DNA from: Escherichia phage vB_EcoM_KWBSE43-6
Sequence record: NC_048186.1
Direction: 5' to 3' (one strand)
DNA: 64,000 nucleotides
This document shows positions 50,146-50,622 of this stretch, piece by piece. The notes beneath the pieces were generated by a model, which ran no database searches, was not told the DNA's origin, and saw only the letters and a list, made by a program, of their open reading frames with translations. Positions within the stretch are counted from its first letter, which is position 1; the number at the start of each line of letters is the position of its first letter. The translations under genes and the position numbers were made by a program.

Positions 50146-50175
50146 AAGAAGGGGCTTTCGCCCCTTTTCTTATTC
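50144..50175. terminator. Bidirectional rho-independent terminator
   Basis: AGGGGC-TTTC-GCCCCT with flanking A/T runs, between convergent genes. Confidence 0.6.
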
Positions 50176-50622
50176 CCAGAAATCATCGTCATCATCGACT
50201 TCCGCCAATTCAGTATCCAGATCTTCATCCGAATACTCCGGCAATTTACCATTCTGTTGCAGGTAAGCGATCTCATCATCTTCCAGCTGCAGGTCGGTGG
50301 CGATAAAAAGTGCATCGCTTTCTTCGTCATGCTCAATGCTGTACGACGTATATTCCATGCCCTGAACGGTAATGATGATGCTGGTCGGATCATCGGGGTC
50401 GACGTGTGCCTCGAAAGGAACTCCATCAATCGGAGCGTCTTCCAGGAAAGTTGCCAGGGCGATAGCAGCACGAACAACGTCGGTGCCTTCTACGGACGCA
50501 TAGATCTCTTCAGCGCCAGTTTCCCCGCGCTCAAAAAACTCTATGGTTGTGCCGTCTTGAACGCCAGTCCATATTGGAGCGTCCAGTATTGATTCAGATT
50601 CGAATAAAGTGGAGATTGCCAT
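50170..50622 (-). CDS. Highly acidic protein (candidate DNA mimic or anti-restriction factor)
   Basis: 150 aa with very high D/E content; C-terminus EYSDEDLDTELAEVDDDDDFWE. Confidence 0.45.
   Translation of the reverse strand: MAISTLFESESILDAPIWTGVQDGTTIEFFERGETGAEEIYASVEGTDVVRAAIALATFLEDAPIDGVPFEAHVDPDDPTSIIITVQGMEYTSYSIEHDEESDALFIATDLQLEDDEIAYLQQNGKLPEYSDEDLDTELAEVDDDDDFWE

Follow-up and report, generated by a model that had tools for sequence, protein, structure and literature searches.

The Dar proteins of phage P1 (DarA, DarB and their partners) are incorporated into the head during morphogenesis, are injected and protect the DNA. T7 Ocr, a small DNA mimic, is the all-helical product of the first early gene. 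In T4, IPI*, IPII and IPIII, which are small internal proteins, are made late, packaged and delivered with the DNA, and do their work before the phage genes are expressed. As a set they are diverse: injected anti-defence proteins that have only their targeting peptide, the capsid-targeting sequence (CTS), in common (PMC3012670). Loading proceeds via the N-terminal peptide MKTYQEFIAE, which is removed by the prohead protease (PMC8442874), and IPI* blocks the type IV nuclease GmrSD (PMC3012670, PMC8442874). T4 Alt is a further effector packaged in the virion. We compare with these systems a gene for a hyper-acidic protein of 150 residues, found in a stretch of 64,000 nucleotides of Escherichia phage vB_EcoM_KWBSE43-6 (NC_048186.1), hereafter the window. 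The region is 90-97% identical to Klebsiella Taipeivirus genomes, which belong to the Ackermannviridae (Vi1-like phages).

The open reading frame (ORF) comprises 150 codons from ATG to stop on the minus strand. The unnamed PHROGs family phrog_3852, the only one into which the protein falls, matches it end to end (E = 6e-84), and 276 phage records contain it by tblastn, from which we take it to be a genuine gene. The protein has 21 Asp and 21 Glu against one Lys and two Arg, giving a net charge of -39 and an isoelectric point (pI) of about 4.05; its Asp plus Glu fraction of 0.28 is the highest among the 96 window ORFs of at least 100 residues (mean 0.11). The C-terminus reads AEVDDDDDFWE. An earlier note on this DNA had described, with no strand given, an Asp/Glu-dominated protein with a DDDDD run, in agreement with our counts, and had read it as an early DNA mimic. 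We favour, tentatively, a different reading, in which the product is a late, virion-packaged, co-injected polyanionic core protein that may act as a decoy for a DNA-binding host protein. Catalogues already list the family, under 'hypothetical' or 'unknown structural protein', and that it occurs in virions is published. What is new here is the corrected strand and context of the gene, its late-promoter assignment, its core-gene status, the terminal motifs, the lack of membership in any known DNA-mimic family and the placement among proteins with CTS-like N-termini.

Orthologues of the acidic protein are present in purified virions according to three independent published proteomes, which we mapped to the family. 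In LIMEstone1, ORF174 (16.62 kDa) and its neighbour ORF173 were confirmed as structural proteins by electrospray ionization tandem mass spectrometry, with reported coverages of 12.50% and 11.84%, respectively (PMC3296691). These values are exactly those of one 19-residue and one 18-residue tryptic peptide of the two sequences, and the mapping of the LIMEstone1 orthologues is therefore confirmed. That ORF174 gave a single peptide is explained by the acidic protein offering only about two (two or three) usable tryptic peptides. All 12 of the LIMEstone1 structural proteins of unknown function have structural counterparts in ViI (PMC3296691). In the ViI record the three genes of the locus that are labelled 'phage associated protein' are Vi01_179, Vi01_183 and Vi01_184, which are orthologous to the 78-residue protein, the ADP-ribosyltransferase (ART)-like protein and the acidic protein of the window. 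CsCl-banded virions of Sajous1 yielded 31 spectra for gp115 and ten for gp116, where the neck protein had 33, the tail tube 52 and the needle knob 16 (PMC10892097); a sequence check identified gp115 as the acidic and gp116 as the ART-like orthologue. We found no structure of an Ackermannviridae particle in the PDB, and a review of the family makes no mention of anti-defence or internal proteins.

Late expression of the gene is a well-supported prediction, made from the position and conservation of an upstream motif and from its sharing with structural genes. There are exactly two copies of the 15-mer CCTAAATACCCCATA. One lies shortly before the ART-like gene and the other shortly before the acidic gene, where it overlaps the stop codon of the ART-like gene. 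Its core, CTAAATA, has six copies in the window, a number not above chance, and all six lie 27-40 nucleotides upstream of start codons on the same strand. The genes behind them encode the acidic protein, the ART-like protein, a 63-residue protein, a baseplate wedge protein (true start 59587) and a tail-fibre protein, the sixth being the gene at 15857. In Sajous1, the genes for sheath, scaffold, neck, wedge, tail fibre, tailspike and VrlC have TAAATA 25-45 nucleotides upstream. All five genera examined, namely Taipeivirus, Kuttervirus, Limestonevirus, Agtrevirus and Miltonvirus, keep the motif before the acidic orthologue, and in Magnus and Miltonvirus it is retained although the upstream gene differs. 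The same hexamer is annotated as 'putative late promoter' before ORF168, ORF173 and ORF174 in the GenBank record of LIMEstone1. Together with one TATAAATA, the sole exact T4 late-promoter octamer within the window, CTAAATA behaves as a late-promoter core. The 2011 CBA120 paper described the late-promoter sequence of ViI-like phages as yet unidentified, and our literature searches for Kuttervirus transcriptomes and for CTAAATA as a late promoter returned nothing relevant. An extended form of the motif, CTAAATACCCC, is found at the tail fibre, tailspike, ART-like and acidic genes.

The acidic gene is the last of a minus-strand unit that runs, in order, through the genes for the 78-residue protein, the tail needle knob, a 202-residue protein, an enzyme that depends on pyridoxal phosphate (PLP), a 50-residue Cys-rich ORF and the ART-like protein. 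The unit then ends at a hairpin that we assign as a bidirectional terminator because it lies between convergent genes, that at 49774-50145 on the plus strand and the acidic gene on the minus strand. Terminators are annotated at the corresponding place in Matapan, Magnus and LIMEstone1. The earlier note had named two terminator-like hairpins and both are found, one at 48304-48321 (+) and the other being this terminator. The acidic gene had been placed within the block that they bound; it lies instead to the right of the second hairpin and on the opposite strand. Nor does the label of an early-type gene hold, given the late-promoter motif and a position at the end of a unit with the needle knob gene.

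The family behaves, as far as its sequences tell, as a slowly evolving core gene and not as a variable accessory gene. The tblastn records are from phages of Salmonella (160), Klebsiella (44), Escherichia (27), Dickeya (19), Serratia (ten), Shigella (six), Erwinia (four) and Enterobacter (three). The adjoining PLP enzyme has the same record counts and the major capsid protein, at 80% identity or more, has 277, essentially equal to the acidic protein; because of this match we regard the gene as a core gene of the enterobacterial Ackermannviridae. Identity to the other genera is 85% for Kuttervirus, 78-79% for Limestonevirus and Agtrevirus and 46% for Miltonvirus. For comparison, identities across genera are 86% for the DNA polymerase, 88% for the PLP enzyme, 84% for the needle knob, 60% for the ART-like protein and 43-49% for the 202-residue protein. 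A profile search of 1.84 billion representative proteins returned seven clusters, every one from the acidic-protein family, and there is thus no distant annotated relative. Pfam-A gave no family at E <= 0.1, and a sequence search of the PDB gave only noise (E >= 0.47). No homologue was detected in Vibrio or Aeromonas relatives, despite a 65%-identical capsid protein and a retained PLP enzyme. In Vibrio phage 1.244.A (MG592609) the acidic gene is replaced, downstream of the PLP enzyme, by a 604-residue protein annotated as RNA polymerase sigma-70 (5179-6993).

An AlphaFold2 (AF2) model built with a 27-sequence family alignment has a mean predicted local distance difference test score (pLDDT) of 70.5 and a predicted template modelling score (pTM) of 0.66. 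It predicts a compact alpha/beta core between two low-confidence ends, with pLDDT below 50 for residues 1-13 and 131-147. Low confidence notwithstanding, both ends are conserved: M1, S4, L6, F7 and E8 are invariant at the N-terminus and D144, D147, F148 and W149 at the C-terminus, apart from a Leu in place of E8 in Miltonvirus and one outlier that ends in DDLW rather than DDFW. These motifs largely hold in the 46%-identical Miltonvirus proteins and in metagenomic outliers. Net charge within the family ranges from -33 to -40, all members have an acidic residue at 25 of the 42 acidic positions, and a charge of -12 falls to the last 25 residues alone. Conserved, disordered termini would be the signature of short linear motifs for docking or processing. 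Acidic C-terminal docking tails are known from Escherichia coli SSB (...DDDIPF) and T7 gp2.5 (...DF). The tail of the acidic protein is similar to these in having a run of Asp and Glu followed by aromatic residues, in being predicted as disordered and in being invariant. It differs in that zero to three residues follow the aromatic pair, so that the terminal carboxylate is not on an aromatic residue, and the protein has no OB fold.

The N-terminus bears on packaging. The ART-like neighbour starts with MKTFLEF in the window, with MKTFLEFYRE in the Kuttervirus Matapan and in Sajous1, and with MKTFLQYLQE in XF4. Three window ORFs, namely the ART-like gene and two further small genes that are conserved, start with MKTF.[ED]F, against about 0.003 expected by chance. 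Among the LIMEstone1 virion proteins, ORF080 (MKPFIQYFNE), ORF082 (..SFLQFMQE) and ORF173 have an N-terminus of the same type, as does ORF079 (MKGFQDFLLKE), the product of an adjoining gene. Since Ackermannviridae also carry a T4-like prohead protease, scaffold and core, they very probably use a T4-like targeting peptide, and the CTS-like N-termini on several small proteins suggest a set of capsid-targeted cargo proteins in this family. The cleavage consensus of T4-type prohead proteases is L/I-x-E. The acidic N-terminus contains L-F-E, which has this form, and resembles T4 Alt (MELITELFDE) and the Sajous1 scaffold (MKPELQNLFEG). The sequence of the decapeptide is thus suggestive of a capsid-targeting or cleavage signal.

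In the mechanism that we propose, the gene would be transcribed late from its own T4-type promoter motif, in a unit closed by the bidirectional terminator. The N-terminal decapeptide may serve as a T4-like capsid-targeting signal or, through its L-x-E, as a site for protease cleavage, and the protein would be loaded into the prohead beside the ART-like protein and other small proteins bearing a CTS. It would be ejected with the genome into the next host, where its polyanionic surface and tail could form a nucleic acid-like decoy. The decoy would occupy a DNA-binding host protein, either a nuclease of a defence system or a protein of the nucleoid, at a time when no phage gene is yet expressed. 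The hydrophobic anchor of this acidic docking peptide may be its D-F-W tip. With orthologues present in virions, a role in anti-defence or as a decoy survives only in altered form: the protein would be ready-made and injected, like T4 IPI* or P1 Dar, and not expressed early like Ocr or ArdA. The acidic protein is like the T4 internal proteins in the presence of its orthologues in virions, in its late-promoter motif and in its conserved, disordered N-terminal decapeptide with L-x-E; there is no sequence homology, and the match to the CTS is partial. It has no homology to the Dar proteins either, which are large and not polyanionic.

Several points weigh against this proposal. The T4 internal proteins are highly basic, in contrast to the charge and pI of the acidic protein, and the consensus N-terminus MPTSKLFESE fits the CTS pattern at M1, F7 and E10 only. 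The spectral counts for Sajous1 are shotgun data that also contain some non-structural proteins. Location in the head rather than the tail, cleavage and ejection are all steps that we infer. Conservation on a par with the DNA polymerase, PLP enzyme and needle knob, and above that of the ART-like and 202-residue neighbours, is more easily explained by constraint from phage partners than by an arms race with host proteins. Fold searches revealed no structural likeness to known DNA mimics. A weaker point is that Taipeivirus phiHS2 is moderately restricted by BREX, which is blocked by Ocr-type mimics; this hinges on phiHS2 carrying the acidic gene.

The evidence for DNA mimicry as such is the composition of the protein, by which it is possibly a mimic. 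A specific form of the proposal is a pre-made, virion-delivered DNA mimic that a T4-like peptide would direct into the head. Injected together with the cationic 5-NeOmdU DNA, it would neutralize a modification-tolerant or modification-dependent nuclease or a nucleoid protein at entry. We think this unlikely; if true, the DNA-mimic class would gain its first injected member, accompanied by an ADP-ribosyltransferase packaged with it and by further CTS-tagged effectors. The question matters because Ackermannviridae are in wide use as phages for biocontrol and therapy against Salmonella, E. coli O157, Klebsiella and Dickeya, and more than half of their genes have no function assigned. The acidic protein is among the few such unknowns that occur throughout the enterobacterial branch, are plentiful in the particles and have an extreme chemistry. 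Should it be injected, the counter-defence strategy of the T4 internal proteins would extend to another family, with acidic and possibly DNA-mimicking cargo. The CTS-like N-termini in turn suggest both a packaged effector set and a tag, ready for use, by which foreign proteins could be loaded into these phages.

The alternative that survives best is that the protein serves only the structure or assembly of the particle and does nothing in the host, which is possible and nearly as likely as the injected decoy. Such a protein could be associated with the head core or scaffold, could balance the charge of basic core proteins or of cationic 5-NeOmdU DNA, could be an accessory of the tail or baseplate, or could dock onto a basic phage partner through its D-F-W tail. 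Core-gene status, with record counts like those of the major capsid protein and the PLP enzyme, is consistent with this, as are conservation like that of the DNA polymerase and needle knob and the combination of a late-promoter motif with presence in virions. Invariance of both disordered ends is what would be expected for docking onto conserved phage partners. The prohead core protein of Sajous1, gp154, is extremely basic, and the unit of the acidic gene also encodes the tail needle knob protein. On the other side, we know of no ordered virion protein of comparable composition, and a fold search of the PDB with the AF2 model gave no significant match and none to any head or tail protein. The Vibrio branch has the capsid protein and the PLP enzyme, no detectable acidic homologue and the sigma-70-like gene at the syntenic site; the acidic protein is therefore not needed for the basic architecture. 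If its role is structural only, it is nevertheless a conserved particle component, the removal or tagging of which would be useful for engineering.

We give little weight to a late cytoplasmic assembly chaperone, similar to the acidic chaperones of tail assembly and fibres, that merely co-purifies with the particles. Late expression, as predicted from the motif, and a small acidic product would suit this role, and shotgun virion proteomes also list proteins that are clearly not structural, among them RegB, a single-stranded DNA-binding protein and terminase. It is countered by detection in three separate studies and phages, and by the 31 spectra that remain after CsCl banding from two or three detectable tryptic peptides, which exceed the counts of many bona fide structural proteins.

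A partnership with a neighbour in the unit is similarly improbable. The acidic protein might be an inhibitor, immunity protein or chaperone of the ART-like protein (its fold faintly recalls the acidic chaperones of type III secretion), or it might regulate the DNA-acting PLP decarboxylase. The ART-like protein has conserved H-Y-E-type motifs, LYHGS (YHGS), GFYLS and VEMVLY, and its orthologues are found in virions as LIMEstone1 ORF173, ViI Vi01_183 and Sajous1 gp116. From its motifs it looks like a small packaged ADP-ribosyltransferase, a functional analogue of T4 Alt; one annotation pipeline labels it a 'DarB-like antirestriction protein'. The acidic protein resembles Alt in a short N-terminal peptide only (MELITELFDE in Alt, M-x-x-S-x-LFESE here), and shows no enzyme motifs and no homology to it. 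The ART-like gene has 220 records against 276 for the acidic gene, occurs in 20 of the 44 Klebsiella phage records and in none from Serratia phages, and is missing from Magnus, ChubbyThor and Miltonvirus, in which the acidic gene is kept. Because it is so often absent where the acidic gene stays, a dedicated role as ART inhibitor or chaperone is unlikely, and partnership with the ART-like protein was rejected as the main explanation since the two genes do not co-occur. The ART-like protein also evolves much faster (60% against 85% identity). About one fifth of the genomes of the family are missing the ART-like gene.

In each enterobacterial genus examined, the gene of the PLP enzyme precedes the acidic gene within one transcription unit. 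Synteny with neighbours carries little weight here, since gene order is conserved family-wide. The ViI orthologue of the PLP enzyme, gp226, is the O-serinyl-T decarboxylase that completes the 5-NeOmdU hypermodification. This pathway has been reconstituted with purified enzymes, and the acidic protein was not among them (PMC5889632, PMC8989533). A role in this pathway was rejected on the strength of that reconstitution and of the Vibrio relatives, which keep the PLP enzyme without the acidic gene.

Least probable is the explanation of the earlier note, an early-expressed Ocr/ArdA-type mimic that blocks type I restriction-modification: small size, an acidic C-terminal run and a net charge per residue of -0.26 against -0.24 for Ocr (from the T7 record) do speak for it, but the gene is preceded by a late-promoter motif, lacks a sigma-70-like site directly upstream, is the last of a late unit on the strand opposite to the block described in the note, and is a core rather than a variable accessory gene, the phage DNA is already hypermodified against classical restriction, and the protein has no Pfam family and a predicted alpha/beta fold with no DNA-mimic match. 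The mimic reading is supported as regards charge density and not as regards a known mimic family, a fold match and early expression. Structure prediction, which the note had proposed as a check, gave a fold with no DNA-mimic match. Alignment of the acidic family with T7 Ocr by hhalign gave a probability of 0.15%, indicating no relation, and homology to ArdA was found neither by Pfam nor by PDB sequence search or fold search. What the acidic protein has in common with the Ocr/ArdA-type mimics is small size, a charge density equal to that of Ocr and a possible decoy action on DNA-binding proteins; it differs from Ocr in being virion-borne, preceded by a late motif and predicted to be alpha/beta.

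The positions of the features discussed are collected in Table 1.

Table 1. Features of the acidic-protein locus and related motifs, numbered along the window.
Feature	Position	Strand	Remarks
Hyper-acidic 150-residue protein, coding sequence	50170..50622	-	phrog_3852; orthologue of ViI Vi01_184, LIMEstone1 ORF174, Sajous1 gp115
Codons 1-10, MAISTLFESE	50593..50622	-	Disordered in AF2; candidate capsid-targeting or cleavage peptide
Predicted compact alpha/beta core, residues ~17-125 (three strands, helix, four strands, helix)	50248..50574	-	AF2; net charge -24
Polyacidic tail, residues 126-150	50173..50247	-	Low confidence; 13 Asp/Glu in 25, ends D-F-W; AF2 and alignment
GAGGA ribosome-binding site	50631..50635	-	8 nucleotides before the acidic ATG; direct sequence reading
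Late-promoter-like motif CCTAAATACCCCATA	50645..50659 (core 50652-50658)	-	Core CTAAATA 29 nucleotides upstream of the acidic ATG
ART-like 151-residue upstream neighbour	50655..51110	-	Sub-threshold Pfam ART-PolyVal, DUF3990 (E ~5e-6)
Second exact CCTAAATACCCCATA	51131..51145 (core 51138-51144)	-	Core CTAAATA 27 nucleotides upstream of the ART-like gene
PLP-dependent enzyme	51300..52670	-	ViI gp226 orthologue; upstream of the acidic gene, common unit
Tail needle knob-like virion protein gene	53416..53934	-	Member of the acidic gene's putative late unit
78-residue protein gene	54179-53943	-	Opens the putative late unit
T4 late-promoter octamer TATAAATA	54212..54219	-	Exact match; just after terminator 54232-54255, 32 nucleotides before the 78-residue protein gene
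Terminator before the minus-strand late unit	54232-54255	-	
Bidirectional intrinsic terminator	50149..50166	.	G+C-rich hairpin, T-runs on both strands; ends the acidic transcript and the convergent plus-strand unit
CTAAATA copies	15895-15901, 50652-50658, 51138-51144, 55726-55732	-	
CTAAATA copies	59540-59546, 63470-63476	+	
CTS-like MKTFGEFLTE ORF	55501-55692	-	phrog_3684; CTAAATA 33 nucleotides upstream
CTS-like MKTFKDFLED ORF	29325-29546	-	phrog_4805; directly after Hoc-like gene

Some further observations concern the surroundings of the gene. The ORF of the PLP enzyme is listed at 456 residues, of which those before about residue 60 are matched neither by homologues from other genera nor by the PHROG profile; either the Taipeivirus form is extended at its N-terminus, or its true start is a later one. 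The 50-residue Cys-rich ORF (CSTCG...CGNVFCPGG, phrog_14303; 51151-51303, minus strand) overlaps the stop codon of the PLP enzyme, and tblastn found no match to it at the loci of Matapan, XF4, ChubbyThor and 3M. A listed long ORF at 53943-54356 runs into tRNA-Gln; the real gene is the 78-residue ORF starting at 54179. Seven tRNA genes (Gln, Tyr x2, Asn, Ser x2 and Met; 54308-55995, minus strand) lie just upstream of the late unit.

The plus-strand block at 48339-50145, a separate unit, has four genes (phrog_4732, phrog_4823, phrog_4687 and phrog_6044) with no function assigned. It is more variable between genera than the acidic gene, being 67-69% identical or absent, and the C-terminal half of its 182-residue protein is acidic.

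At the ART-like gene, the ATACCCCATA part of the CCTAAATACCCCATA copy pairs with TATGGGGTAT just before the ATG (51108-51134, minus strand). In some genes the ATACCCC part of the promoter motif forms the 5' arm of such a hairpin, and the 3' arm, GGGGTAT(TTT), directly adjoins the start codon. This is seen, for example, at the ART-like gene, at the tail fibre gene (63473-63511, plus strand), at Sajous1 gp166 and tailspike, and at the acidic gene of Miltonvirus. This hairpin could be a terminator that overlaps the promoter, or a structure in the 5' untranslated region that controls translation.

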